Source: Deltaproteobacteria bacterium (GTDB lineage Bacteria > Desulfobacterota > Dissulfuribacteria > Dissulfuribacterales > Sh68). From it: a stretch of 42,075 nt of DNA. Position 1 is the first letter of the stretch, and every line of letters begins with the position of its first letter. Position numbers and translations under genes: made by a program. The DNA is taken from positions 1 to 42,075 of the forward strand of contig JAJYLJ010000003.1 in assembly GCA_021787835.1 (NCBI GenBank), given 5' to 3'. Of the stretch, positions 418 through 35,016 are shown piece by piece. A model generated the notes under the pieces. That model was not told where the DNA came from. It made no database searches and was given only the letters and a program-made list of their open reading frames with translations.

Positions 418-1830
418 CTAGTCGGCCCCCTCTTGGGTCACATCGTCAGAAACTGGTATCACAACCTCTACAACAGTTCCCTTTGGCGAAGCCCCGTTGG
501 CCGTTAAATCCTTAAATGAGATAGAACCGCCCATTGATTCAACAAGACGTTTTACAATCCCTAGACCAAGGCCCGTGCCCCTCGCCTTTGTCGTGACAAA
601 CGGTTCAAAGAGCCGCTCCTTAACGGCATCTGGAAGACCCGGGCCGTTATCTTCCACTCGTATCACAAGCCCTGCTACGTCATATTTCAGTCTGAACTCC
701 ACCCTCCCCCCCTGTTCGCCAATGGCATCAATGGCGTTCTGCGTGAGATTGAGTGCTATCTGCGTAAGTTTAGCCTTGTCCGAATATACGCTTGAATGAT
801 CACAGCTAAATGTAAGGATAATATTATCCGCAGGCATTATCAAACCGCTTCTTATATCCTTACAAAATTTTTCTATCTCGAACACCTCTAAATACGGCCT
901 TGCGGGCCTTGCATAGGCAAGAAGATCAAGTGTCAGGCGTTCAAGCCGTTTGGATTCATCCACGATTATCTCCATGTCTTGCCTCAAGGCGGTCGGCAAA
1001 TCTTCTTCAAGATGAAATTGGGCAAAACCCTTTATGCTGCTAAGCGGATTCCTGATCTCGTGGGCCAGGACGGCGGCCATCTCTCCAAGCGATGCAAGTC
1101 TTTCCTGCTCATAGAGCATCGCCTCAAGCCGCTCGCCTCTCCGCCAGGCAAGAAAAAAGAAAAAGGTGATAACCCAGAGTATTATAAGCGAAAACACTGC
1201 AATAAATATCTGAAAATTCGCCTTTCTTACAATACCCTCGGCTGGATATGGATGAATGGCCACTCTCAGGCAAAAGACCTTCTCTATCTTTTCGTTATCT
1301 TCATTCACATGATAAGGAGTCTTTTCAAGTTTATCGATCCTTTTTTTTAAGAGCTTGTAAGCGCGCACGAGCTTTTTGTGAAGCTGAAACGGAAAGTCCA
1401 GTATGAATACATCTTCGCCGGTCGCCAAAGTTGAAAAATGTATGGACGGCACCTCATCTTTTATCACCTTCTCAATGTATGCATCTTTTTGTTCTCTTCC
1501 GATAAGCTTTGGATTCGAATGTAAAATTATCATACCTTCCTGATCATAAAGACCAAGAAAAGCCAGATCTCCGCGCTTCTCGGTCCTTACGACCTCGGGC
1601 AAGAGTCCCTCCTTAAGGCCGAACCTGTCAAGGGTTATACCTATATTCACTGCTATATCAATGGCCCGCTTTTCCATGAGGTTCTTCGCCCCATCAATGG
1701 ATATCTCGTAGGTTCCGATGGCGCTTATAACCACTACCACCGAAAAAAGCATCAGCAAGCCCAATGCTATAAGCTGATAAGGCATTGAGACGACAGAATA
1801 TTTATTGGCTTTTCCTCTATCTTCTGCCAT
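418..1830 (-). CDS. Sensor histidine kinase (two TM segments flanking a roughly 165-aa extracytoplasmic region; HisKA + HATPase_c)
   Basis: 470-aa ORF with H-box LAHEIRNPLSSIKGF, N-box LNLTQNAIDAI, G1 VEDNGPGLP and G2 GTGLGLGIV. Hydrophobic segments are YQLIALGLLMLFSVVVVISAIG and FQIFIAVFSLIILWVITFFFFLAW. No response regulator gene lies next to it. Confidence 0.85.
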   Translation of the reverse strand: MAEDRGKANKYSVVSMPYQLIALGLLMLFSVVVVISAIGTYEISIDGAKNLMEKRAIDIAVNIGITLDRFGLKEGLLPEVVRTEKRGDLAFLGLYDQEGMIILHSNPKLIGREQKDAYIEKVIKDEVPSIHFSTLATGEDVFILDFPFQLHKKLVRAYKLLKKRIDKLEKTPYHVNEDNEKIEKVFCLRVAIHPYPAEGIVRKANFQIFIAVFSLIILWVITFFFFLAWRRGERLEAMLYEQERLASLGEMAAVLAHEIRNPLSSIKGFAQFHLEEDLPTALRQDMEIIVDESKRLERLTLDLLAYARPARPYLEVFEIEKFCKDIRSGLIMPADNIILTFSCDHSSVYSDKAKLTQIALNLTQNAIDAIGEQGGRVEFRLKYDVAGLVIRVEDNGPGLPDAVKERLFEPFVTTKARGTGLGLGIVKRLVESMGGSISFKDLTANGASPKGTVVEVVIPVSDDVTQEGAD

Positions 1831-2090: not shown

Positions 2091-3887
2091 TTATTTGTGA
2101 TAAATTCCTCCTTTTTTTATTATGTCTTCGTATCTGTCCAGTTCTTTTTTATACAATGCATCGTCCTTCACGAGGGGTATGGAGAAGTCACCTTTGACAT
2201 GCCACTTATCCTTCAGATAATACCATGGGGCAAAGTCTTCGATCTTCCACCCATCTTTCACCATAATCTTTGTAGTAGCCCGCATATCCTTTATGGATAA
2301 ACCGTTTTTGTCGGCCACTACCGTATGCCTGCCCTTGAACGGCTCCGCGCCTTGATCGCTGTATTCCCATGTGACCTCCTGACGCTGCGCCCCGTCTTTT
2401 GTGTGGCAGCTATCACAGCTCCTTGCCTTGCCGTACTTGTGTGACAGCTTGTCCATCTGTATCCATGCAAGGGCATCGCCATCTGATGGAAGCCCGCCCA
2501 AAAGCCCGACAAAGGCATACGCATCGTCTGTCCTTTTGAGATCCGGAAGATTTGCAGGGAACCGCCATGCCAGGCCTGGTTTCAAATTGCCGGCTGTTTT
2601 TTGGTTCAAAACGGCGTTGATAAATGGTTTCACAGGGATCCATCTTCCCCTCTGATCCTTGATAAGAATAGGTTCCTCCATGACGCCGTAGTATTTTTTA
2701 TATTTGAAGAAAGGCGTTGCAACCCCTGCTATCTTGCCAGGGCCCCAGAATGTTGCGGTATAGGCGCCTACATCCTGGATATGGCACGCCTCGCATGAAA
2801 CCCGCTCGTGGACGGATTTTGCAATTGATTTCACCGCAGCACCATGACATTTAGAGCAATCAACCTGCCTCTTTACCTGCCCGTGCAAAAGTGTTTTGTC
2901 TTTTGCAGGCGTGTCGTGGCAGTCAAGGCATGAAAGCCCTTTTGAATAATGGATATCCGGTATCGCGCCTTTTGGATTTGCATAGAGCCCGCCTATGTAC
3001 CCGGCGCCCCTTCTTCTCTCCTCCGGTCCCGCGTGGCACAATGAACCCCTGCCGCCGCCATAGCAGGACTGTGCTGATACACTTTTTGTAAATGTATGCG
3101 GACCAATTGCAGGATCATTCGGGTCGTTACTTCTAGGGGTGTAGTGGCAATCAAGACACCCGACATGGCAGAGATTGCAGGCCTTCTGGTTGACAGACGC
3201 CATCCCTTTCGTAAACGGCACATTGGTGCCTTTTGCGATTTTCTCATAGCCGTCTGCAAACCAGGCGCCGCAGTTGTGCGGGCCCCTATCCTTGTCGGTC
3301 CATGTCTTATATTGGCTCTGTTTTGCGTTGCGGCCCATGGCGGTCTTCTTGAACTCATTGACTTCTTTTTGATGACACATACCGCATGTCTTTTCGGTCG
3401 CCTCATAATTGCCGAAAAGGGTCTCAGGGTCTATATCATGGAATAAGATGGTGTCTATCTGTGGAATCCTGACAAACCTTCCGTCTTTCTCCGCCATCGG
3501 CAGGAGCTCTGTCAGCGGATTTTCCCCTCTCGGCTCCATGGATTCCGGCTTGTATCTTTCGAGCTTATCCCTTGTGACGGCCTGAAGACCTCCTGACCTT
3601 AAAACATAATAAGGTCTCAGCATCCCCTTGTGCGCACCTTCTTTTGTAGGATCGGCAGGGTTGCCCAGATGACAGTCAGTGCACGATGCGGGCATCTTCG
3701 TCTGTTTCTGCGTCTCCTCATTTGTTATCGTGAATTGAGGATATCCAAACCCTTTCATCTTGGATGTGTCGGCATGACAACCAAGACAGCTGTTGATTTC
3801 CTGTTTTGGCCGGGCGGCTGCCTGATTGTTTATAAGGAATAAGGCAGCCGTGCCAAGCATCAACATAAATATTATACGCACCTTCAT
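2091..3887 (-). CDS. Secreted multiheme c-type cytochrome (9 canonical CxxCH sites plus one atypical C-x8-CH-like site)
   Basis: 598-aa ORF with an N-terminal signal-like segment MKVRIIFMLMLGTAALFLINNQAAA. CxxCH sites are CLGCH, CTDCH, CGMCH, CNLCH, CLDCH, CLDCH, CSKCH, CEACH and CDSCH, plus CYGGGRGSLCH. An SD (aggaggg) lies just upstream of the ATG at 3887. Confidence 0.85.
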   Translation of the reverse strand: MKVRIIFMLMLGTAALFLINNQAAARPKQEINSCLGCHADTSKMKGFGYPQFTITNEETQKQTKMPASCTDCHLGNPADPTKEGAHKGMLRPYYVLRSGGLQAVTRDKLERYKPESMEPRGENPLTELLPMAEKDGRFVRIPQIDTILFHDIDPETLFGNYEATEKTCGMCHQKEVNEFKKTAMGRNAKQSQYKTWTDKDRGPHNCGAWFADGYEKIAKGTNVPFTKGMASVNQKACNLCHVGCLDCHYTPRSNDPNDPAIGPHTFTKSVSAQSCYGGGRGSLCHAGPEERRRGAGYIGGLYANPKGAIPDIHYSKGLSCLDCHDTPAKDKTLLHGQVKRQVDCSKCHGAAVKSIAKSVHERVSCEACHIQDVGAYTATFWGPGKIAGVATPFFKYKKYYGVMEEPILIKDQRGRWIPVKPFINAVLNQKTAGNLKPGLAWRFPANLPDLKRTDDAYAFVGLLGGLPSDGDALAWIQMDKLSHKYGKARSCDSCHTKDGAQRQEVTWEYSDQGAEPFKGRHTVVADKNGLSIKDMRATTKIMVKDGWKIEDFAPWYYLKDKWHVKGDFSIPLVKDDALYKKELDRYEDIIKKGGIYHK

Positions 3888-4373: not shown

Positions 4374-5045
<672 letters not shown>

Positions 5046-19395: not shown

Positions 19396-20625
19396 TTATT
19401 CATACCGTAACGCACTGATCGGGTTTAACAATGACGCCTTGTAGGCCGGATAAAACCCGAAAAATATGCCTGTCACACCTGAAAAGCTAAAGGCCAGGAG
19501 CACGGATAGGGGAGAGATAAGTGTCGGCCACCCGGATAAAGTTGAGATAGTTTTCGCCACGCCGACTCCCATCAGTATCCCCATGATGCCGCCAAGCAAC
19601 GAAAGGGTCAGGGCCTCGATAAGAAATTGCAGTCTTATATCCCATGCCCTTGCGCCTACCGCCATCCTTATTCCGATTTCGCGGGTCCGTTCCGTGACAG
19701 ATACAAGCATGATATTCATGATCCCGATTCCTCCTACTATAAGGGATACCGAGGCTATTGCGCCAAGAAGGAGCGACATGATTTGCGCCGCCTTTTCAGC
19801 CGCTCCAAGAATCTGTGTAAGATTCTTTACCGTAAAATCATTCTCCTGCTTTGGACCTATATGGTGCCTCTGTTTTAATAGCTCGGTGATCTGTTTCTCG
19901 GCAGGTTCCAGATAGTCAGCACCTTTCGCACTCACCAGAATAACCTTTATCATGCCGGGGAATGCTGTTCCGAATAATTTTTTCTGGGCCGTTGTGACCG
20001 GTACATATATGGCGTCATCCTGGTCTTGCCCGCTCGGGGATTGCCCCTTTTCATCAAGAACGCCTATCACGGTGAACGGGACCTTCTGTATGCGTATGAC
20101 CTGACCGACAGGGTCAATGGAGCCAAAAAGATTCTCCACCACCGTCTTGCCAAGAAGACAGACTTTCGTGGCCCCTCTAACGTCCTGTCCGGTAAAATAT
20201 CTGCCTGATGCCAGCGACCAGTCTCTCAGGTCAAACATGCCGCGGGTTGTGCCGGTAACCATTGTCGACCAGTTCTGATTGCCATAAACCACCTGGGCTA
20301 CGCCGCTTAGCACAGGTGCTACATAAAGCACCGCCGGACATTGTTTTTCAACGGCCTCGGCATCTAAAAGCGTAAGCGTCGGCTGACTGCCCATGCCATG
20401 GCTCATGCCGCCCGATGTGCTCGCACCTGGCAACACTATCAAGAGGTTGCTGCCTATGCTCGCTATCTGGTCTTCAAGCATCTTCCTTGCGCCGCTTCCC
20501 ACAGCCAACATTATTATAACCGCGCCAACGCCTATTATAATGCCCAGCATTGTAAGGATTGAACGCATCTTGTTGGCCCTGATGGCATCCGAAGCTATTT
20601 TAAAAGATGGGATGATTCCGATCAC
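19396..20625 (-). CDS. MacB-type ABC transporter permease (FtsX fold with large periplasmic domain)
   Basis: 409 aa. N-terminal TM, a roughly 230-aa periplasmic domain, then three C-terminal TMs with TERTREIGIRMAVGA and a YPAYKASLLNPISALRYE tail. Confidence 0.9.
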   Translation of the reverse strand: MIGIIPSFKIASDAIRANKMRSILTMLGIIIGVGAVIIMLAVGSGARKMLEDQIASIGSNLLIVLPGASTSGGMSHGMGSQPTLTLLDAEAVEKQCPAVLYVAPVLSGVAQVVYGNQNWSTMVTGTTRGMFDLRDWSLASGRYFTGQDVRGATKVCLLGKTVVENLFGSIDPVGQVIRIQKVPFTVIGVLDEKGQSPSGQDQDDAIYVPVTTAQKKLFGTAFPGMIKVILVSAKGADYLEPAEKQITELLKQRHHIGPKQENDFTVKNLTQILGAAEKAAQIMSLLLGAIASVSLIVGGIGIMNIMLVSVTERTREIGIRMAVGARAWDIRLQFLIEALTLSLLGGIMGILMGVGVAKTISTLSGWPTLISPLSVLLAFSFSGVTGIFFGFYPAYKASLLNPISALRYE

Positions 20626-21314
20626 GTCTTTTTGACCTCTTCATCATCTGTTACGCGCCCGTCTGAAAATTTAATGATACGCCTTGCAAATGCTGCTATA
20701 TCTGGTTCATGTGTTACGAGAATGACCGTAACATTAAGATCTTTATTTAGCCTTACAAACAACTTCATTATCTCATAGCTCGTCTTTGTGTCCAAATTGC
20801 CTGTCGGCTCATCCGCCAAGATAATAGGCGCATTGTTTACAAGCGCCCTTGCTATGGCGGCCCGTTGCTGCTGTCCGCCAGAGAGCTGATTCGGATAGCT
20901 GCCTGCCTTGTCTGAAAGCCCGACCGCCTCAAGGGCTTTCAGGGCCATCTGTCTGCGCTTCTGGGCCCCAACTCCGGCATAGAGCATCGGAAGACCGACG
21001 TTTTCAACCAGTTTGGTCCTCGGAAGAAGATTGAAACCCTGAAAGATGAACCCCAATTTTTTGTTTCGGATCTCGGCCAATTCATTGCCGTCAAGCCCTC
21101 CGACATCCACTCCATCCAGGAGATATGACCCGCTTGTGGGTTGATCGAGACAGCCTATCATGTTCATAAATGTGGATTTGCCCGAACCGGAAGGCCCCAT
21201 TACGGCTATAAACGCGCCAAGGTCAATGGTCAAAGAGACATCCCTTAAGGCATGAACCTCGACATCGCCGCTTTTATACACCTTGTTCAGGCCCTTGACC
21301 TCTATGAGCGCCAT
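20622..21314 (-). CDS. ABC transporter ATP-binding protein (MacB/LolD family)
   Basis: 230 aa. Walker [10 protein letters not shown], signature LSGGQQQR, Walker [12 protein letters not shown]. Overlaps the permease start by 4 nt. Confidence 0.9.
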
Positions 21315-21316
21315 GA

Positions 21317-22483
21317 CTAAAACATCCGCAGAGCCGGGCGCTGATCCTTTGGCTTCTCAAGGGATTCGACTATAACCCTGTCACCATCCTTAATTTCTCC
21401 CGAGGTTATTTCACTATATGTCCCGTCCGTAATGCCGACCTTGACAGAGACCCTTTTGGGTTTGCCGGCCCTGTCAAGCACCCATACATTAGAGCCCCTC
21501 GGCCCATTTCCTTCGTGTATTCCTCTTTGGGTCTCCTGTTCAGGCATGAATCTCAAGGCTGCGTTTGGAACGCTGAGTATATTTTTTTTGGAACTTACGA
21601 TTATAGAGACATTGGCGGTCATGCCCGGTTTTAATTTAAACTCAGGATTATCAACCTTTACCACCACATCATAAGTCACCACGTTTTGTATTGTGGTAGG
21701 GGCTATTCTGACCTCGGCCACCTTGCCGCTAAAAGGTGTCTCTGGATACGCGTCAACGGTGAACTCCGCATTCTGTCCGACAGCTACGGCGCCTATATCG
21801 GCCTCGTCAACATTTGTATCTATCTGCATCTTGGTAAGGTCTTCCGCGATAGTAAAAAGCGTGGGCGTCTGGAAGCTTGCCGCAACCGTCTGTCCAACGT
21901 CAACCTTTCTTGAAACAACAATACCATCCACCGGAGAGAGTATCCTGGTGTATTTTAAATTCGTCTCGGCATAATTGAGGCTTGCGCTAAGCTGCTTTAT
22001 CTGGGCCTTCGACGATCCAACCTGGGCCCTGGCGGTCTCATAATTTGTCTCTGCCGTATCAAGGTCGCTTCTTGCGACCAAATTCCTTGAAAAGAGCTCG
22101 CGCTCCCTATTCATGGTCCTCTTCGCATCAACCAAAGTCGCCTCGCCCTTCTTGAGGTCGGCCCTCGCGGCCTGCACATCAGCCCTCGCCTTTTCAACCT
22201 GGGCTTCAAAGAGAGCCGGGTCGATCTGGGCTATCAATTCGTTCTTCTTTACAGGTGAGTTAAAATCGGCGTATATATACTTTATTGTGCCAGAGACCTG
22301 GGTGCCGACATCGACCGTGGTCACCGCGTTTACCGTGCCGGTGGCGGTCACGGTGGCCTTTATGTCCCTCCTGGCCACTTGCTCCGTCTTGAATTTCGGG
22401 GCCTCTTTCCCGCCCCGCATCAAAAAAAATATCGACAGGCCGACAATGACAATAGACGCCAGGATAAAGACTATTTTTTTCAC
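21317..22483 (-). CDS. Efflux periplasmic adaptor (MacA/HlyD family membrane fusion protein)
   Basis: N-terminal TM, coiled-coil hairpin, and lipoyl/beta-barrel segments. The start is placed at GTG 22483 (VKKIVFILASIV...), directly after the TolC-like TAA and 6 nt after gggggag. The track start at 22534 would overlap the upstream gene by 50 nt. Confidence 0.8.
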   Translation of the reverse strand: MKKIVFILASIVIVGLSIFFLMRGGKEAPKFKTEQVARRDIKATVTATGTVNAVTTVDVGTQVSGTIKYIYADFNSPVKKNELIAQIDPALFEAQVEKARADVQAARADLKKGEATLVDAKRTMNRERELFSRNLVARSDLDTAETNYETARAQVGSSKAQIKQLSASLNYAETNLKYTRILSPVDGIVVSRKVDVGQTVAASFQTPTLFTIAEDLTKMQIDTNVDEADIGAVAVGQNAEFTVDAYPETPFSGKVAEVRIAPTTIQNVVTYDVVVKVDNPEFKLKPGMTANVSIIVSSKKNILSVPNAALRFMPEQETQRGIHEGNGPRGSNVWVLDRAGKPKRVSVKVGITDGTYSEITSGEIKDGDRVIVESLEKPKDQRPALRMF

Positions 22484-22484
22484 C

Positions 22485-23768
22485 TTACTCCCCCATCGCC
22501 TTTTCGAGCCCTGCAAACGCCACCTTGTAGTCATAAAGGGCCTGGATATGGGCTAACTTGGCGCTCTCAAGGGCAACCTCGGCGTCTGTAACCTCAATCG
22601 GGCTTCCGACGCCAACATTATACCTGCCGGTTGCTATCTCAAAATTTTCTTCTGCCTGCTTGACCGCAAGTTCAGCCACGGGCACCTGTTCTTCAGCCTC
22701 TTTTAGGTTGAGATACGACTGCTTCACATCAAGAAAGACGGTATTTTTAAGTGCCATCTCTTTTGCGGCGATGGAACTCAGATTCGCTCCCGCCTCTTCA
22801 ACCTGATATTTTGTAAGAAAACCACTGAATACAGGAAAGGTCACGTTCACCCCAACGCTCCAGCCGTCCTCCAGAGGAAACGACGCCCCGCCCATATTGT
22901 AGGAAGCGTTGCCGGCAACAGAGGGATAGTAACCTTTTTTTGCAAGCTCTATCGATGCCTGCGCCGCATTCTTCTGGATGAGCATCGAGCGAAGATCGGG
23001 CCTTGCATCATAGGCCTTTTTTAAGGCTTCATCAAAGCCTATCTTGACTGGAATAAACTGGAGGTTATCCTCCAATTCATATCCTTCCAGAGTTGTCATG
23101 CCCATTGCGTTATTAAGACCGGCCAAGGCAAGCCTCATGGTGTTTTTCGCCTTTATGAGATTTAATCTTGCATTGCTCAGATCGACTTGTGCCTTCGTGA
23201 CATCAAACTTGGGCCTGGTTCCGACCTCATAGAAACCTTCCGCCTGCTTGAGATGCAATTCAAACTGCCCTATCGTATCTTGCGCTACCTTGAGGTTGCG
23301 TTTAGCCTTTAGCGCAGCGAAATAAGCCTGTCTTACATTAAATATCACCTGACTTTTTATCCACCTTAAATCGAGACTCGATGACGCGAGATTAAGGCGG
23401 CTGATCTTGACCTGGGTCGACGTCTTCCCAAAGTCATAAATGTTTTGCGTAAGAGAAAGCCCGCCTGAATAGTCATCAAAGGCCCTATCGGTAATCTGGC
23501 TCACGGGTGAATAACGGCTGTATCCTGTCGCAAGATTAATTTGCGGCAGGTAACCTGACTCCGCCTGACCTATTCTGCTTTTTTTCGCTGCGACATCACC
23601 CATCGCCGAAAGTATATCGGGCTGATGCTTCAAGGCCAAATTTATACACCTGTCCAGGCTGAGAACCTCGCCCTTGCCGATGCTGTCGTCGCATTGTGCC
23701 TTGGAGACCAAAAGGACCGGGGAAAACGCCGCAAAAATAATAAAGCCGAACCATCTAAAATAGATCAT
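22485..23768 (-). CDS. TolC family outer-membrane efflux protein
   Basis: 427 aa with a signal peptide. It shows the two-repeat OEP architecture with the characteristic LxLxxAxxxALxxNPDL-type opening (LSLDRCINLALKHQPDIL). First gene of the efflux operon. Confidence 0.85.
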   Translation of the reverse strand: MIYFRWFGFIIFAAFSPVLLVSKAQCDDSIGKGEVLSLDRCINLALKHQPDILSAMGDVAAKKSRIGQAESGYLPQINLATGYSRYSPVSQITDRAFDDYSGGLSLTQNIYDFGKTSTQVKISRLNLASSSLDLRWIKSQVIFNVRQAYFAALKAKRNLKVAQDTIGQFELHLKQAEGFYEVGTRPKFDVTKAQVDLSNARLNLIKAKNTMRLALAGLNNAMGMTTLEGYELEDNLQFIPVKIGFDEALKKAYDARPDLRSMLIQKNAAQASIELAKKGYYPSVAGNASYNMGGASFPLEDGWSVGVNVTFPVFSGFLTKYQVEEAGANLSSIAAKEMALKNTVFLDVKQSYLNLKEAEEQVPVAELAVKQAEENFEIATGRYNVGVGSPIEVTDAEVALESAKLAHIQALYDYKVAFAGLEKAMGE

Positions 23769-23994: not shown

Positions 23995-25485
23995 TTGAGT
24001 AAAGAGAATTTGATACTCAAGCAGCGCAGGGAAAAGCTAGAAGAAATTGAGGGGGTAAATGTAAAGCCCTATCCAAACAATATAAAACCACCCGAAAAAA
24101 TAGCGGCTTTGATAAAGGCATATGGCGGCGCGGACACAGAGGCTCTGAAGGCCTCTAAAGTAACCTTTAGACTGATAGGCCGCATAATGGGGCTCAGGCG
24201 TTTCGGCAAGGCGGCATTTCTTCACATTCAGGACTCATCCGGACGCATTCAGGTCTACGTTGCTAAAGATGGCATTGGAGAAGAGGCCTATGGAATATTT
24301 AAAAAATTTGACTTAGGCGATATACTTGAAACAAGTGGCGGACTCTTTCGTACAAACACAGGGGAACTCACCCTGGCGGCAAGCTCCGTCAGGCTCATCA
24401 CAAAGTCGCTCCGTCCGCTTCCGGAAAAATTCCACGGGCTCAAGGATAAAGAAATCCGCTATCGCCAGAGATATGTCGACCTGATAATAAACGAAGAGGT
24501 CAGACAGACCTTTTTGACACGCGCTAAAATAATCCAGATCGTAAGGGAGTATCTTGCACAGAATGGATTCCTCGAGGTCGAAACCCCCATGATGCAACCC
24601 ATAGTGGGCGGCGCCACCGCAAAACCATTTGTCACGCATCACAACGCCCTTGGTGTTGATCTATATCTCAGGATTGCACCAGAGCTGTATCTCAAAAGGC
24701 TCCTTGTGGGCGGATTTGAACGTGTGTTCGAACTAAATAGAAATTTTAGAAATGAAGGCATATCCCTTCAACACAATCCCGAATTCACGATGCTCGAGTT
24801 TTATGAGGCGTACGCTACATATGAAGATCTAATAAAAAGAACTGAAGAACTCTTTTTAAAAATCGCCCACGAAGTCCACGGACAAAACAAAATAAGCAAT
24901 CAGGGCCAGACGATAGATCTGACGGCGCCGTGGCGCCGTATCACATTAAAAAATTCGCTTAAGGAAGTAGGCGGGATACCCGAATGCGATCTTTTGGACA
25001 GGACAAAGATGACTGCAAGACTCAAAGAACTGGGGGTGGACATCAGGGGTGACGAACTCCAAGGGAAACTATGGACAAAACTCTTTGACCTTCTTGTGGA
25101 GCCGAAGCTCATACAACCCACATTTATTACGCATTATCCCACGGATGTCTCGCCTCTTGCGCGCAGAAACGAGGATGACCCATCAGTAACAGACCGCTTT
25201 GAACTCTTTATCGCCGGCAGAGAGATCGCTAACGCATTCTCAGAACTGAATGACCCTCGGGACCAGTGCAATCGTTTCAAAGAACAGATAGACGAAAGAA
25301 AGGGTGACGAAGAGATCCCGCCCGTACTGGACGAAGACTATGTAGCAGCGCTTGAATACGGAATGCCCCCGGCGGCAGGGGAAGGCATAGGGATAGACCG
25401 CCTGGTCATGCTCTTTTCCGACTCCCCGTCCATACGAGATGTCATACTATTCCCGCAGCTTAAACCGGAACCGGCCCTTAAATGA
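23995..25485 (+). CDS. lysS: Lysine--tRNA ligase (class II)
   Basis: 496 aa. OB anticodon-binding domain, class II motifs (FLEVETPMMQ, FRNEGIS..HNPEFTMLEFY, GIGIDRLVML). TTG start at 23995, with aaggag 8 nt upstream. Confidence 0.95.
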   Translation: MSKENLILKQRREKLEEIEGVNVKPYPNNIKPPEKIAALIKAYGGADTEALKASKVTFRLIGRIMGLRRFGKAAFLHIQDSSGRIQVYVAKDGIGEEAYGIFKKFDLGDILETSGGLFRTNTGELTLAASSVRLITKSLRPLPEKFHGLKDKEIRYRQRYVDLIINEEVRQTFLTRAKIIQIVREYLAQNGFLEVETPMMQPIVGGATAKPFVTHHNALGVDLYLRIAPELYLKRLLVGGFERVFELNRNFRNEGISLQHNPEFTMLEFYEAYATYEDLIKRTEELFLKIAHEVHGQNKISNQGQTIDLTAPWRRITLKNSLKEVGGIPECDLLDRTKMTARLKELGVDIRGDELQGKLWTKLFDLLVEPKLIQPTFITHYPTDVSPLARRNEDDPSVTDRFELFIAGREIANAFSELNDPRDQCNRFKEQIDERKGDEEIPPVLDEDYVAALEYGMPPAAGEGIGIDRLVMLFSDSPSIRDVILFPQLKPEPALK

Positions 25486-26777
25486 TTAACTTAAATATAT
25501 CGTTTGAATGGTTTACGGCCCTAAGATACCTCAAGGCAAAACGTAAACAGGCATTTATTTCACTGATAACATTGATATCAATAGCCGGCGTTGCCATAGG
25601 AGTCATGGCGCTCATCGTGGTAATATCGGTAATGGGCGGGTTTGAAGACCACCTAAGGACAAAGATACTCGGCATCAACTCCCACATCATTGTAAGGAGC
25701 TACCGCGGCTCATTCGGGGACTATAAAAAAATAGAAAGAAAAATACTCGACACATCCGTCGCGGAAAACAATATGCTGGAAAAAATATTCGGCATGGGTT
25801 CAAGGGCCAAGATCATAGCGGCAACACCTGTCATTTACATACAAGCGCTTCTAAGCTCTGGGCATGGAGTAAGCGGGGCAATTATACGTGGAGTCGATCC
25901 TGACACCCTGCCTACGGTCATAGACACTGGAAGGATATTGCTGGGAGAAGGCCTTTCCGCATTGAAACACGGACGCAAAAACGCCCTCCCGCCTATAATC
26001 TTGGGCAAGGAACTGGCAAAAAACCTTGGCGTTTCTGTTGGACAAACCGTACAGATAATCCTGCCGAGCGGCACCATCACACCTGTCGGCATGCTACCAA
26101 AGATAAGGGGATTCAAGGTAATAGGCATAGACACCACTGGCATGTTTGAATACGACTCATCCCTTGCATTTATAGACCTCTCTGATGCCCAAAAACTCCT
26201 CGGGCTCAATGACAGTGTTCATACTATCGAGCTTAAGGTCTCGGATATCTATGCATCCGACAGACTTGCGCAGGCCATAGAAAGAAAGCTCGGCCCGCCT
26301 TTCTTTGCAATAGACTGGCAACAGATGAGCAGGAGTCTGTTCTCCGCGCTTAAGCTCGAGAAGATCGCCATGTTCATAGTATTGACGTTGATAGTATTGG
26401 TGGCGGCATTCAACATAGTAAGCACTCTTATAATGATGGTTATGGAAAAACATCAGGATATAGCTATTCTAAAGGCGATAGGCGCAACAAACAGGCAGAT
26501 ACTCAAAATTTTTGTATATAATGGCTTAATAGTTGGGCTCATAGGGACATTTATCGGCGTTATCGGCGGGGTTGGCCTTTGCGAACTGCTTTCAAAATAT
26601 AAATTTATAAAGATACCAAGGGATGTATATTATACCGACTCGCTTCCAATCCTCTTAAACACAACCGATGTGGTCATAACAGCCGCATCCGCGATCATCA
26701 TCTGTTTTATCGCGACTATTTATCCGGCCAGACAGGCGGCCAAGGTGAATCCGTCCGAGGCGCTGAGAAACAGATAG
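25482..26777 (+). CDS. Lipoprotein-releasing system permease LolC/E family
   Basis: 431 aa. N-terminal FEWFTALRYLKAKRK, a MacB-like periplasmic domain, and a C-terminal FtsX domain. ATGA overlap with lysS. Confidence 0.85.
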   Translation: MINLNISFEWFTALRYLKAKRKQAFISLITLISIAGVAIGVMALIVVISVMGGFEDHLRTKILGINSHIIVRSYRGSFGDYKKIERKILDTSVAENNMLEKIFGMGSRAKIIAATPVIYIQALLSSGHGVSGAIIRGVDPDTLPTVIDTGRILLGEGLSALKHGRKNALPPIILGKELAKNLGVSVGQTVQIILPSGTITPVGMLPKIRGFKVIGIDTTGMFEYDSSLAFIDLSDAQKLLGLNDSVHTIELKVSDIYASDRLAQAIERKLGPPFFAIDWQQMSRSLFSALKLEKIAMFIVLTLIVLVAAFNIVSTLIMMVMEKHQDIAILKAIGATNRQILKIFVYNGLIVGLIGTFIGVIGGVGLCELLSKYKFIKIPRDVYYTDSLPILLNTTDVVITAASAIIICFIATIYPARQAAKVNPSEALRNR

Positions 26778-29671: not shown

Positions 29672-29748
29672 TGGTCGGGGCGAGAGGATTCGAACCTCCG
29701 GCCCTCTGCTCCCAAAGCAGATGCGCTACCAGACTGCGCTACGCCCCG
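29672..29748 (-). tRNA. tRNA-Pro (anticodon UGG), CCA encoded
   Basis: The reverse complement reads CGGGGCGTAGCGCAGTCTGGTAGCGCATCTGCTTTGGGAGCAGAGGGCCGGAGGTTCGAATCCTCTCGCCCCGACCA (77 nt). It has a 7-bp acceptor stem, a D arm GCGC/GCGC, an anticodon stem TCTGC/GCAGA with loop TTTGGGA, and a T arm GGAGG/CCTCT with loop TTCGAAT. Confidence 0.9.
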
Positions 29749-30947: not shown

Positions 30948-31451
30948 CTACGAACAGTTTGGGCTAATGCAATTGGCAGGATTGGCCTCTCTTTTTTTAA
31001 CCCTTATGATCTTGAGATTTTTCTTTATATTTGCACATCCTGACGCCTCGTCCCTTGCTTCCTTCATGGCCTTTATATAGACATCACATTCCTGGCAATG
31101 ATTTAGCTCTCTGGCGCAGGCCGTGCTCGCCCTCTCCCAGCAAGGCACAATCTTATTTGCAAAGGCAGTGCATTTTTCTCTTCTTTCCGGAGGGCATTTC
31201 TTGATTTCCCAGCATGGCGTCAACTCAAGCAGCTTTTTTATGCCAGGGATGCTTATACCTTCTTCATGGATAAGATGACGCAAACAACTTATCCACTCGA
31301 CATCATCCTGAGAATAATAGCGCTTATTACCTTGGCGGGCAGGATTGATGAGGCCCTCTTCCTCATATACCCTGAGGGTTCTAGGGTGCAATCCGAGCAG
31401 TTTGGCCGCTACACTTATGGGATAAATGGGTTCATTTTTGTCGAGTTCCAT
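30948..31451 (-). CDS. MerR-family (HspR-like) transcriptional regulator fused to a Cys/Trp-rich C-terminal domain with two PCWE motifs
   Basis: 167 aa. N-terminal HTH ISVAAKLLGLHPRTLRVYEEEGLINPARQGNKRYYSQDDVEWISCLRHL. C-terminal TPCWEIKKCPPERREKCTAF...VPCWERASTACARELNHCQECDVY. SD ggaggg lies 3 nt upstream of the ATG at 31451. Confidence 0.8.
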   Translation of the reverse strand: MELDKNEPIYPISVAAKLLGLHPRTLRVYEEEGLINPARQGNKRYYSQDDVEWISCLRHLIHEEGISIPGIKKLLELTPCWEIKKCPPERREKCTAFANKIVPCWERASTACARELNHCQECDVYIKAMKEARDEASGCANIKKNLKIIRVKKREANPANCISPNCS

Positions 31452-32385
31452 TTTCCCTCCTATTTTATATGGTCATGTAACTTTAACAACTTTAAGCATT
31501 CTAATGTTTAACTATTAAAAAATATAAATTTTTATGTCAATATTTAAATTTGAATATCATTCATTTTTTAACTTTTTTAGCCTTTACCAAAATAATTCAA
31601 TAACGGTCTTTTAATAATTATAATATGATAGTTAAAGGAAAGAAACATCAAGAAGAATCTATTTTGATGAATTTTCTATAAAAACTAAAAATAAATATTG
31701 AGGCCATTAAGATATAACCATTACAACATATCGCATCCTGGACTGAGAAGAGGATTTGCAAGAATCAAATTTGCATTAGCGGCCCTGAGGATCTTTAGAT
31801 GCGTGCAATCTGATCTTAACATAATCATATAAGAAAATATCCTCACAAGTATATTGTTTTCATCAATCCAGCTAGCCATAATTATAAATGATAATATCAT
31901 GCAGCGCTAAGATAGCCATTTTTTTGTTTTAACCGATGATGTCAAAGACAGATAAGGCCCAAAATATTGCACTCGACAATAATCATACATATATGGAATA
32001 CTGTTGATCGGGAAGATAGTAGAATATCCAATGGCGTCAAAATTTATTCTTTTAACTAGCTAATTTTATTATTATTTATAAATTTTATTTATATTAAAAT
32101 TGTAAGAATATTAACAGATTAATTTTTTCCATTAATTACAATTAAAATATTTTACATTCACGATAAATATTTATCCATTTTTATTGATAGATTGAATATC
32201 ACAATTTTTTTATAATAAAAAATATCTTGATTTTAACATTTTAAATTGTCAACTAACTAATTGAAAATATTATTTTTTTCTTGACAAAACAAAAAAATAA
32301 TTTATTCTTTTAATTAAAGATATAAGATTAAAAGTCAATAAAAATACGCTTTAATTAACTTCTTGAATAAGGAGGAAAGCGGACC

Positions 32386-32628
32386 ATGAATAAAATGAAG
32401 GCAATAAAAACAAAACTGAAAGAACGTAGCAATAAAATTATCAATATTGATGATATATCAAGCGTTGATTTTGAGGAAGAGGTAGGCAACATAGGTTTGG
32501 GATCAGCAGGCATAGTAGCTGGACTTGTTGGGGCGTGGAGTCTTATCTGTCTTGCAGCTGGGCTTATAGCAGCTCATGGTCCTATTGGTTTTATAACAAG
32601 TTGGATTGGTGCAGTTATTGGCAATTAA
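32386..32628 (+). CDS. Small membrane protein, paralogue 1 (charged N-terminus, glycine-zipper hydrophobic C-terminus), unknown family
   Basis: 80 aa. SD aaggagg (32369-32375) lies 10 nt before the ATG. The C-terminal 44 aa, GLGSAGIVAGLVGAWSLICLAAGLIAAHGPIGFITSWIGAVIGN, align without gaps to the next ORF (23 of 44 identical, my count). Confidence 0.65.
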   Translation: MNKMKAIKTKLKERSNKIINIDDISSVDFEEEVGNIGLGSAGIVAGLVGAWSLICLAAGLIAAHGPIGFITSWIGAVIGN

Positions 32629-32657
32629 ATTAATTAATTCAGAAAGGAGGCTCTAAA

Positions 32658-32888
32658 ATGCAAAACGCTTATTCAACAACACAGGTAAAGGCAAAGGATA
32701 AGGCCGGCATAGACGTGTCAAGCACGAGTATAGAAAAAGAGATATCGAAATTAACACTGGCCGCAGGTGGTATAATGGCTGGCGCCGTAGGTGTATGGGG
32801 CCTTGTATGTCTTGCGGCGGGCATGATTTCTGCTGGCGGACCAATAGAACTCGCCAAGGCATGGTTTTCTGCTGTGACAGGTATGTAA
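32658..32888 (+). CDS. Small membrane protein, paralogue 2 (tandem duplicate of 32386..32628), unknown family
   Basis: 76 aa. SD aaaggagg (32643-32650) lies 7 nt before the ATG. C-terminal sequence is TLAAGGIMAGAVGVWGLVCLAAGMISAGGPIELAKAWFSAVTGM. The shared pattern is AG-I-x-AG-x-VG-x-W-x-L-x-CLAAG-x-I-x-A-x-GPI-x5-W-x2-AV-x-G. Confidence 0.65.
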   Translation: MQNAYSTTQVKAKDKAGIDVSSTSIEKEISKLTLAAGGIMAGAVGVWGLVCLAAGMISAGGPIELAKAWFSAVTGM

Positions 32889-32948
32889 TTTGTAATATAT
32901 AATCTAATATATTACAAATGATGGGACATCTTTTTGATGTCCCATCAT
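32888..32948 (+). terminator. Two consecutive perfect 13-bp hairpins after the small-protein pair (putative terminator)
   Basis: Hairpin 1 is atttgtaatatat (32888-32900) with atatattacaaat (32907-32919). Hairpin 2 is atgatgggacatc (32918-32930) with gatgtcccatcat (32936-32948), loop ttttt. T-rich sequence follows, but the T-tract is not immediately adjacent. Confidence 0.55.
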
Positions 32949-33132: not shown

Positions 33133-35016
33133 TTGCGTTATATGATCAGGGCCTTAATGGCCATTATAATATTTGCTGCAATAGGAATAACCGTTTATTT
33201 GCCCTGGCACTTTGAAGATCAACTTCCAGTTATGAAATATAGCGATTTTATAACAGCCGTCAAAAAGGGGGAAATTTCAGAAGTAAAAATCGAAGGCGGA
33301 GAGCTGACGATAACAGATAACAACAGACGGACCTTTTTTACTTTTTCACCCGACATAAATAATCTTATCCCCACATTATTAGAACACAAAGTTTCAATAA
33401 AGACTGAATCCACCAAACTAGGCTTCATATTCTATCTCCTTATCGCAACAATATTCTTAAGTATAACAGGGCTTTTCATATTATGGTTCTTCAATAAGCA
33501 AATCAGGAAAAAAGAAGACAGTAAGTTTGCAAAAACCAAAATTATCAATCTCTGCGAACGCATCAAGTGCGCTACATTTGATGATATAAAAGGTATCAAC
33601 GAAGCGAAAGAAGAGGTGGAAGAAATCGTAGAATTTCTCAGGCAACCTTCCTCAGTAAGCCGCCTTGGCGGAAGAATCCCAAAAGGTGTCTTGCTCATGG
33701 GTCCCCCAGGCACTGGCAAGACATTGCTCGCCAGGGCCATCGCCGGCGAGTCCGGTGTGCCTTTTTTTAGTATAAGCGGTTCAGATTTTGTAGAGATGTT
33801 TGTCGGGGTCGGGGCATCCAGGGTTAGAGAACTCTTTAAGGAGGCCAAAAAAAATGCACCTTGCATAATCTTTATAGACGAAATAGACGCCGTAGGTAAA
33901 AACAGGGGAATGGGCGATGCGCCAGGCGGTCAAGAAGAAAGGCAGCAGACCCTCAACGCACTTCTGGTGGAGATGGATGGCTTTGAATCAGATGACAATA
34001 TAGTAGTTTTGGCCGCGACCAACCGGCCCGATATTTTAGACCCAGCCCTTTTACGTCCCGGGCGCTTTGACAGACGCATTTATATCCTGCCGCCCGACAT
34101 GAAAGGCCGCATTGATATCCTGAAAATACACACAAGAAATGTCGTTTTATCAAAAGACATAGACCTTGATGCTATCGCCAAAAGCATACCAGGCTTTACC
34201 GGTGCCGATATCCGCAACCTGGTCAATGAAGCAGCCCTTGTAGGGGCGAGGAAGGGCAAGGATGCCATAGAGATGGAAGACTTTGAGGAAGCCAAAGATA
34301 AGATCATTCTTGGGGTCGAAAGAAAGGGGATGGTAATGAACGAACAAGATAGACGGACCGTTGCCTATCATGAGGTGGGTCATGCCATTATGGCTAAAAT
34401 ATTACCCAATACCGACCCTGTCCACAAAATAACGATTATCCCGAGAGGAAGGGCTATGGGGATAACTCAACAGATCCCCCTTGATGACCATCATGCGTAT
34501 TCAAAGGAATACCTGACGAACAGGATTAAAATCATCTTTGGAGGAAGGGCGGCCGAAGAAGTGGTATTTGACAAAATAACGACTGCCGCAAGAGATGATA
34601 TCATAAGGGCGACGGAAATAGCCACAATGATGGTATGCCAATATGGAATGAGCGATAATATCGGTCCGGTCTCTTATCAGTCTACTACCGGCTCCTTTTT
34701 GTTAGGAGAGTCTCGCCCGCTATTTTTAAGTGAAGAGATAGCCAGCCTGGCAGACAGGGAAATAAAAGGATTTCTGGAAGAATGTTATGAATCTGCAAAA
34801 GATACGATAAAAAAGGAGAGGCAGCTGCTGACAAAAGTAGCTGAAATATTATTGATCCAAGAGACGTTGGACAGAGAAGAATTTGAGATAATTTATGAAT
34901 GCAATCAAAAACTTATGAAAGAAGATATGCAAAATTCCGACAAATGCTCTATCTGTAACATAGCTTGGTGTGAAAAAAAACTTGCAGGGCGCCAAGACGA
35001 AAGCACTGAAGCCTAA
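33133..35016 (+). CDS. ATP-dependent zinc metalloprotease FtsH family, divergent paralogue with Cys-rich C-terminal tail
   Basis: 627 aa. Two TMs, Walker A GPPGTGKT, Walker [33 protein letters not shown], protease site HEVGHAI. It departs from the usual FtsH consensus at [14 protein letters not shown] and TTAARDD. The C-terminus is [30 protein letters not shown] start 6 nt after gggagga. Confidence 0.9.

Follow-up and report, generated by a model that had tools for sequence, protein, structure and literature searches.

The membrane protease FtsH begins the degradation of a membrane protein at a free tail in the cytoplasm that is about 20 residues long or longer. It controls the levels of PspC, and PspB is a protein of about 75 residues with one membrane span; psp and zraP are sigma-54-controlled effectors of envelope stress. 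MgtR and MgtS are small membrane proteins that steer FtsH-dependent degradation, and MgrB is a feedback inhibitor whose gene belongs to the regulon of its target kinase and whose Cys residues sense redox (PMC12648545). DVU0533 is Hmc operon protein 4 (PMC4265775). This study describes a tandem pair of small genes, here called A and B, at positions 32386 to 32888 of a 42,075-nucleotide stretch of DNA (the window; contig JAJYLJ010000003.1 of assembly GCA_021787835.1) from a bacterium of the Dissulfuribacterales, phylum Desulfobacterota. Homology and predicted topology identify A and B as paralogues that belong to a so far nameless family of small membrane proteins with a single span, found in Desulfobacterota; they are encoded just ahead of a gene for an FtsH-family protease.

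The pair and its immediate surroundings comprise the following features, where ORF stands for open reading frame, HMM for hidden Markov model, SD for Shine-Dalgarno, and dN and dS for nonsynonymous and synonymous divergence:

32386..32628, + strand: gene A, 80 residues, from the ORF list; family HMM E 7e-24; dN/dS about 0.28; orthologues in loci L001 and L002; a divergent paralogue of the HGP type, with a charged disordered N-tail, one hydrophobic helix and a 13-residue C-helix, as predicted.
32658..32888, + strand: gene B, 76 residues, from the ORF list; family HMM E 1e-27; dN/dS below about 0.2; orthologues P0003-P0005; nearer to the family consensus than A (GGP...WFSAVTG).
32369..32375, + strand: SD site of A, AAGGAGG, ending 10 nucleotides before the ATG; read from the sequence.
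32643..32650, + strand: SD site of B, AAAGGAGG, ending 7 nucleotides before the ATG; read from the sequence.
32230..32310, + strand: conserved promoter region with two tandem sigma-70-like promoters, from a promoter scan.
32246-32273, + strand: sigma-70-like promoter 1, TTGTCA-16-TATTAT.
32281-32308, + strand: sigma-70-like promoter 2, TTGACA-16-TATTCT.
32890..32948, + strand: two perfect stem-loops directly after the stop of B, of 11 base pairs (32890-32917) and 13 base pairs (32918-32948).
33133..35016, + strand: FtsH-family AAA+ zinc metalloprotease, 627 residues, with a TTG start 6 nucleotides after GGGAGG and two membrane spans.

An initial annotation of this DNA, made from the letters and a list of ORFs, had described a tandem pair of ORFs of about 80 residues and proposed that they are real, well-translated, paralogous genes. 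Both ORFs are present on the plus strand, separated by 29 nucleotides, and both are also predicted as genes by public gene callers. BLASTP aligns them without gaps, as claimed, from residue 23 to residue 79 of A (28/57 identities, E 2e-19). The reported count of 23 identities over the 44 C-terminal residues is exact; among 100,000 shuffles of the B segment the maximum was 17, and none reached 23. The N-terminal motif D-x-SS-x3-E-x-E was found in both proteins. The near-consensus SD sequences placed 7-10 nucleotides from the ATG were likewise recovered, as AAGGAGG-type sites, and so was the AT-rich context: the 935-base-pair spacer upstream has 24% GC, versus 46% for the whole window.

Dissulfurimicrobium hydrothermale (L001) carries the same pair, and so does a metagenomic relative (L002/L003); there a 77-residue A orthologue is followed by a 75-residue B orthologue. 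Identity is 52-62% among the A orthologues and 67-83% among the B orthologues, and 43-52% between A and B within one genome. The duplication therefore predates these lineages. Comparisons of orthologues gave dN/dS of about 0.1-0.3 for A and B, with dN of 0.1-0.33 and dS of about 1 or more, that is, saturated. The low ratio at saturated synonymous sites argues for purifying selection, and hence for two genuinely coding frames. Strong SD sites, homologues and purifying selection on both genes thus bear out the proposal of the initial annotation.

The family is no orphan. A word-seeded homologue search returned only 5 relatives, but when 1.84 billion cluster representatives were searched exhaustively with a profile, 185 matched at E ≤ 1e-3; almost all of these have 64-80 residues and align end to end. 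Family entries that carry a name are all labelled "hypothetical protein", from Desulfocapsaceae, Desulforhopalus, Desulfobulbaceae, "Deltaproteobacteria" and Dissulfurimicrobium. In a survey of one genome per species, a degenerate DNA pattern yielded at least 120 loci with some 44 false positives (for example, in Streptomyces and Rhodobacter), and these were filtered with the family HMM. The pattern demanded the Cys, the Gly-Pro and Trp73, which biases the sample towards consensus-like members. At least 76 genome loci were confirmed by the HMM, and among the matches listed all belong to Desulfobacterota. Counts of genome loci are lower bounds, and the loci span 8 kilobases (kb) or less, so that co-occurrence with NrfC and NrfD genes is under-estimated. 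The small genes number one to four in tandem in the 76 listed loci and five in the metagenome contig L006. Cultured carriers include Desulfogranum mediterraneum DSM 13871, Desulfobulbus alkaliphilus DSM 24258, Desulforhopalus singaporensis DSM 12130 and Dissulfurimicrobium hydrothermale.

That no family could be named for the pair holds after searches of Pfam, NCBIfam, PHROGs, PDB sequences and PDB folds, none of which gave a significant match. For A, B and 52 relatives, Pfam and NCBIfam produced scattered insignificant hits only, a sequence-profile search of PDB reached a best E of 0.44, and Foldseek found 0 matches in PDB for the AlphaFold2 model. A PHROGs scan of 10 members returned no holin match and nothing useful. 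The GlsB/YeaQ/YmgE family (Transgly_assoc) and Pmp3, which had been put forward as candidate remote families, fall away: neither A nor B matched them in Pfam even at E up to 10, and the 52 relatives matched neither profile, Transgly_assoc being absent from their Pfam hits at E up to 1. Literature searches retrieved no paper on this small-protein family or its gene cluster.

Across 248 members, the N-terminal 25-35 residues are variable and the C-terminal 45 are conserved. In the numbering of A, the most conserved positions are G49 (98%), W51 (97%), A76 (92%), G79 (92%), G65 (90%), C55 (89%, otherwise mostly Ser or Ala), G64 (79%) and P66 (74%). The Cys and the Gly-Pro break had been called invariant, which overstates their conservation: the Cys is kept in 89% and the Pro in 74% of the members, and the A orthologue of L002 reads HGV rather than HGP. 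The C-terminus is fixed: 96% of members stop 0-2 residues past G79. On one face of the hydrophobic helix a small residue (Gly, Ala or Ser) returns every 3-4 positions, a pattern that fits an oligomerising helix, as the packing motifs noted earlier had suggested.

An AlphaFold2 model built on a 52-sequence alignment leaves residues 1-26 without regular structure (predicted local distance difference test, pLDDT, below 50 for 1-18), followed by a helix at 27-63, a break at 64-65 and a helix at 66-78; pLDDT is 83-89 across residues 41-80. In this model the end helix behind the Gly-Gly-Pro kink has 13 residues and is amphipathic. Hydropathy shows a single long hydrophobic stretch. The end helix is too short for a membrane span, so the two-span helical hairpin suggested by the initial annotation finds no support and gives way to one helix, a kink and a short terminal helix. 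Lys and Arg together average 4.3 in the N-terminal region versus 0.9 in the C-terminal tail. This skew predicts an N-in orientation, in which the N-terminal tail of about 25-35 residues would stay cytoplasmic. Other small-protein types were considered and rejected. A lipoprotein was set aside for want of a lipobox (L-[AS]-[GA]-C), as S-L-I, G-L-V or G-I-T precede the Cys, which lies about 55 residues in, behind an acidic hydrophilic region, unlike the arrangement of a signal peptide; a type IV pilin-like protein, because a G/FxxxE leader is missing and the protein is oriented the wrong way; and a hairpin like the ATP synthase c-subunit, because there is no second membrane span.

Most aligned columns of the promoter region are invariant across the window, L001, L002 and L003, and because the synonymous sites of the adjacent genes are saturated, this near-invariance indicates strong constraint. 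A TTGTCAA...TTGACAA inverted repeat is visible by eye alongside both promoter-like sites. A sigma-54 promoter was searched for in the window and none was found. Behind B, the stem-loop region 32890-32948 folds as RNA at -34 kcal/mol (z = -8.3) and is probably a terminator or attenuator ahead of ftsH; a simple terminator scan did not call it, as no U-run stands directly behind the stem. Similar stem-loops lie behind the last small gene in L001, L002, L004, L006 and L011, with U-tracts in L004, L006 and L011. With a strong promoter of their own and a stem-loop behind, the small genes are probably made in excess over the next gene. A and B thus resemble a separate transcription unit that is highly expressed and reads through only in part, if at all.

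A recurrent layout around the small genes emerges from nine annotated contexts and the 76 listed genome loci, with distances relative to the small genes:

About -2.1 kb: sensor kinase.
About -0.3 kb: sigma-54 response regulator.
+0.1 to +0.6 kb, same strand: FtsH.
About +2 kb: membrane protein of 301 residues with two spans and a HisKA-like helix but no ATPase domain.
+4 to +5.5 kb, often: cytochrome c, NrfC and NrfD.

The sigma-54 response regulator stands directly upstream in 35 of the 59 listed loci with enough flank, and a sigma-54 -24/-12 element precedes the small genes in 43 of 81 listed loci, versus a background of 0.02 per equivalent stretch. Judging by these promoters and neighbours, the family is under sigma-54 and two-component control in most genomes, a feature that the initial annotation missed, as it did the wide spread of the family in Desulfobacterota. 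The window holds a reduced layout, consisting of a sigma-70-like promoter, A, B, two hairpins and FtsH, with neither a two-component system nor NrfC and NrfD genes nearby.

In the window the product of the FtsH gene matches Pfam AAA, Peptidase_M41 and FtsH_ext and scores 731 bits against TIGR01241 (cutoff 600); the Walker A and B motifs, the pore-loop FVG and HEVGH all read intact in the translation. It is 75% identical to the FtsH beside the pair of L001 and about 50% identical to the cluster FtsHs of Desulfobulbia, and the cluster-linked FtsHs as a whole are about 50% identical across orders. Their tails share EE[FM][ED]II[YV]xC, often followed by C-x2-C-(P)-x4-C. The tail of the window protein (34950..35016) is C-x2-C-x5-C, and a Cys-bearing tail is also found in L001, L004, L006 and about 40 other loci; it could be a metal or redox site. 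Characterised FtsHs are not known to have such a Cys tail. The support for this FtsH being an extra, dedicated copy consists of the shared Cys-bearing tail and the conserved synteny. The order of pair and then FtsH recurs in Dissulfurimicrobium hydrothermale, and the family is linked to FtsH also in L004, L006, L008, L010, L011 and L012. Within 2.5 kb downstream and on the same strand, FtsH is present in 37 of the 57 listed genome loci with at least 1 kb of flank; anywhere in the locus (8 kb or less), it is present in 45 of 76 among the matches listed.

Several observations concern the remaining neighbours. The HisKA-like membrane protein, of 301-325 residues, lies after FtsH in L004 (8281..9186) and L006 (8945..9850) and after the small genes in L008 (6393..7370); in L004 and L006 another residue appears to stand in place of its phospho-acceptor His. 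The soluble sensor kinase encoded upstream may have this protein as a pseudo-kinase partner. A second family of small proteins directly follows the focal gene in L010 (7277..7579, 100 residues) and L011 (6521..6895, 124 residues); its N-terminal membrane helix resembles that of the focal family (G-LWA--A), and the C-terminal part of the L010 protein has a weak precomputed hit to HmcD (PF28260, DVU_0533). In L002 (4443..12228) the pair has a HemN-like radical SAM gene on one side and a nifA-nifH-PII-nifDK cluster on the other. In L001, a tRNA-like sequence recognised by eye (4950..5045) and then about 350 base pairs of apparently degenerate DNA lie upstream of the AT-rich promoter region of the pair, and the window carries a tRNA-Pro (29672..29748) about 2.6 kb upstream of A. 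These tRNA-adjacent sites in L001 and the window could be integration hot-spots.

The reading that we favour, tentatively and with somewhat less than even confidence, takes A and B for N-in membrane proteins that are abundant, self-associate and act as substrates or modulators of the adjacent FtsH. The FtsH link persists in reduced loci, and is for that reason taken as the core association. In the inner membrane A and B would assemble with themselves or with each other, into homo-oligomers or A/B hetero-oligomers, and would work with the neighbouring FtsH as abundant membrane substrates or modulators. The free cytoplasmic N-terminal tail would be engaged by the protease, and the outcome would be a tuning of the response to membrane stress or of quality control of respiratory complexes. 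Among the possible roles that the initial annotation listed, which include a protease adaptor, a link to FtsH is the one that has real evidence behind it, and this evidence is of synteny: in the 37 loci counted above, FtsH is the gene that follows on the same strand.

Several points weigh against this reading. Its functional support comes from gene neighbourhood alone. The stem-loop between the small genes and ftsH means that co-transcription may not occur. About one-third of the listed loci with enough flank have no adjacent FtsH, and the pair of L002/L003, beside nifA and nifH, has no FtsH gene within 6 kb. This FtsH may be the only one of its genome rather than an extra copy. Finally, the kinase-like membrane protein or the cytochrome c, NrfC and NrfD proteins, encoded in many of the neighbourhoods, could be the true partners instead.

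An unlikely extension of the FtsH reading would join the small proteins to the Cys-tailed FtsH and, in most genomes, also to the sigma-54 two-component system and its kinase-like membrane protein, in an undescribed membrane redox or stress circuit specific to Desulfobacterota, with A and B as sensor-substrates and more than accessory peptides. The oxidation or oligomeric state of these peptides, with their intramembrane Cys, would decide whether FtsH extracts and degrades them by way of the N-terminal tail, and the amount or activity of Hmc-like respiratory complexes would depend on this switch by proteolysis.

The neighbourhood also admits other partners. One alternative, which we consider improbable, assigns A and B to an Hmc-like membrane redox complex that interacts with quinones and consists of multihaem cytochrome c, NrfC and NrfD; they would be its accessory subunits or would help to assemble it, comparable to HmcD or to CcoQ and CcoS of the cbb3 oxidase. 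Genes for cytochrome c, NrfC and NrfD do lie 1-5.5 kb downstream in L004, L006, L008, L010, L011, L012, L016, L045, L081 and L092; the NrfD has HmcC as its best NCBIfam match, far under the cutoff, and the cytochrome has c7-type trihaem domains. The family-like helix that opens the next gene in L010 and L011, with the weak HmcD hit in L010, points the same way. However, the pairs in the window, L001 and L002 have no NrfC, NrfD or cytochrome genes within 6-9 kb, neither A nor B gives an HmcD hit, and an array of up to five tandem paralogues closed by a terminator fits an abundant free protein better than a one-to-one subunit.

The two-component genes suggest instead that A and B might be MgrB-like feedback regulators of the adjacent system, binding the HisKA-like protein or the kinase in the membrane, with the Cys as a possible redox input. 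The sensor kinase and sigma-54 response regulator directly upstream in the 35 of 59 loci, the two-span HisKA-like protein about 2 kb downstream in many loci and the sigma-54 promoters, which put the small genes in that two-component regulon, are all consistent with this proposal. The precedent is MgrB, which is part of the regulon of its own target kinase and senses redox through Cys (PMC12648545). We nevertheless hold such a role to be unlikely, as two to five tandem copies are unusual for feedback regulators, and the pairs of the window, L001 and L002 have a sigma-70-like promoter and no kinase or response regulator near them.

A role without any partner is quite improbable, whether in forming a pore, in acting like a holin or toxin, or in stabilising the membrane under stress. 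The recurrent small residues do suggest tightly packed oligomers, the expression signals are strong, and sigma-54 control in most genomes recalls that of psp and zraP. Yet the synteny with regulators and FtsH is stable and chromosomal, and the neighbours are housekeeping genes, FtsH and regulators, with no lysis, phage or antitoxin context. Holins usually carry a charged tail at the C-terminus, whereas that of A and B is N-terminal. The pore or holin role raised by the initial annotation thus lacks both a phage context and a significant PHROGs or Pfam holin match; Phage_holin_3_6 was touched by only 2 of 52 members, at an insignificant E of about 0.01.

Two-peptide bacteriocins and class II microcins also come as tandem small genes with Gly-rich hydrophobic C-terminal halves, and to that superficial likeness A and B add the possibility of several paralogues per locus. 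That they give rise to exported or modified peptides (a two-peptide bacteriocin, a microcin, or a ribosomally synthesised and post-translationally modified peptide), with a hydrophilic N-terminal leader and a Gly-rich C-terminal core, is nonetheless highly improbable. Double-glycine leaders, of about 15-25 residues, have Gly-Gly (or Gly-Ala/Ser) at positions -2/-1; A and B have no Gly-Gly there but E-[IV]-x-x-I-x-L-[GA] before the hydrophobic helix, in the wrong register for a leader. Variation is concentrated at the N-terminus and conservation at the C-terminus, and the NCBIfam leader families gave no match. None of the nine annotated contexts lists an adjacent C39-peptidase exporter, no modifying enzyme is adjacent in the loci examined, and the MacB-type pump of the window is 9 kb away and has no C39 domain.

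The rest of the window includes one further regulator near the pair:

30948..31451, - strand: MerR-family regulator, divergent from the pair across the 935-base-pair spacer; Pfam MerR_1 E 7e-20.

Its N-terminal domain has HspR as best match (NCBIfam, 80 bits, under the cutoff of 105), and its Cys-rich C-terminal extension reads CWEIKKCP...C...C...C..C. Among the related loci listed, only L048 and L085 have a MerR-like gene, several kb off. Control of the pair by this HspR-like regulator was considered and rejected, since the gene is not conserved beside the family and no HAIR-type palindrome was seen on reading the promoter region. An Rfam scan of the window detected tRNA only. A MacB-type ABC efflux cluster (19396..23768, - strand) encodes a MacB permease, an ABC ATPase, an HlyD-family adaptor and an outer-membrane factor, and a separate FtsX/MacB_PCD permease (25482..26777, + strand) stands beside a class II aminoacyl-tRNA synthetase gene; neither has an apparent tie to the pair. 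About 28 kb from the pair, a cytochrome of 598 residues with a c7-type domain (2091..3887, - strand) adjoins a histidine kinase (418..1830, - strand).

Small membrane proteins are routinely missed or left as "hypothetical", and here they form a coherent family with a fixed architecture and a reproducible neighbourhood in Desulfobulbia and their relatives. Such bacteria reduce sulfate and disproportionate sulfur, and their lineage includes the cable bacteria. If the FtsH link is true, the cluster would exemplify in nature a dedicated membrane protease whose small-protein partners are encoded with it, and it would make tractable the question of how the quality or quantity of membrane respiratory complexes is controlled in anaerobes. 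At a minimum the family merits a profile model, and the cluster offers a defined target for transcriptomics in the cultured carriers.

Comparison with known systems places the family among several kinds of small membrane protein. With GlsB/YeaQ/YmgE, Pmp3 and holins it shares a length of about 50-80 residues and Gly-rich hydrophobic segments. Those proteins have two or three membrane spans (Transgly_assoc has three in about 80 residues), whereas A and B have one. HmcD (DVU0533) is likewise a small hydrophobic protein encoded beside genes for cytochrome c, NrfC-like and NrfD-like proteins, and in L010 and L011 an HmcD-like protein with a similar N-terminal helix is encoded directly behind the focal gene. 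However, the precomputed Pfam annotation shows no PF28260 match, and indeed no entry, for A, for B or for any of their listed relatives; the focal gene of L010 has no such hit either, and no Hmc-like genes lie near the pair of the window.

PspB and PspC resemble the family as small inner-membrane proteins expressed from a sigma-54 promoter. They differ in orientation, the hydrophilic part being N-terminal in A and B; neither A nor B has a Pfam PspB or PspC hit, and no PspA or PspF homologues were seen in the clusters. MgrB, the 47-residue inhibitor of PhoQ, is a single-pass small protein in a two-component regulon with conserved Cys, and in Desulfobulbia the focal family is similarly the first output of the adjacent two-component system. 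The cysteines of MgrB are periplasmic, whereas the single Cys of A and B is predicted to lie inside the membrane helix; there is no sequence similarity, and the lineage of the window has no adjacent two-component system.

MgtR and MgtS, of 30-31 residues and with Mg2+ transporters as targets, likewise lack sequence similarity to A and B, which are 2.5 times longer and have a long cytoplasmic tail. Furthermore, A and B occur in tandem arrays linked to the FtsH gene itself, a link known from synteny only, and MgtR and MgtS do not. The likeness lies in the predicted mode of action. Hydropathy, charge and the AlphaFold2 model all predict A and B to be small single-pass inner-membrane proteins of this kind, which may act through FtsH with intramembrane helix-helix packing as the presumed mode. 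Small membrane proteins that partner larger membrane machines are a known kind; what is new here is the family and the architecture of its cluster.

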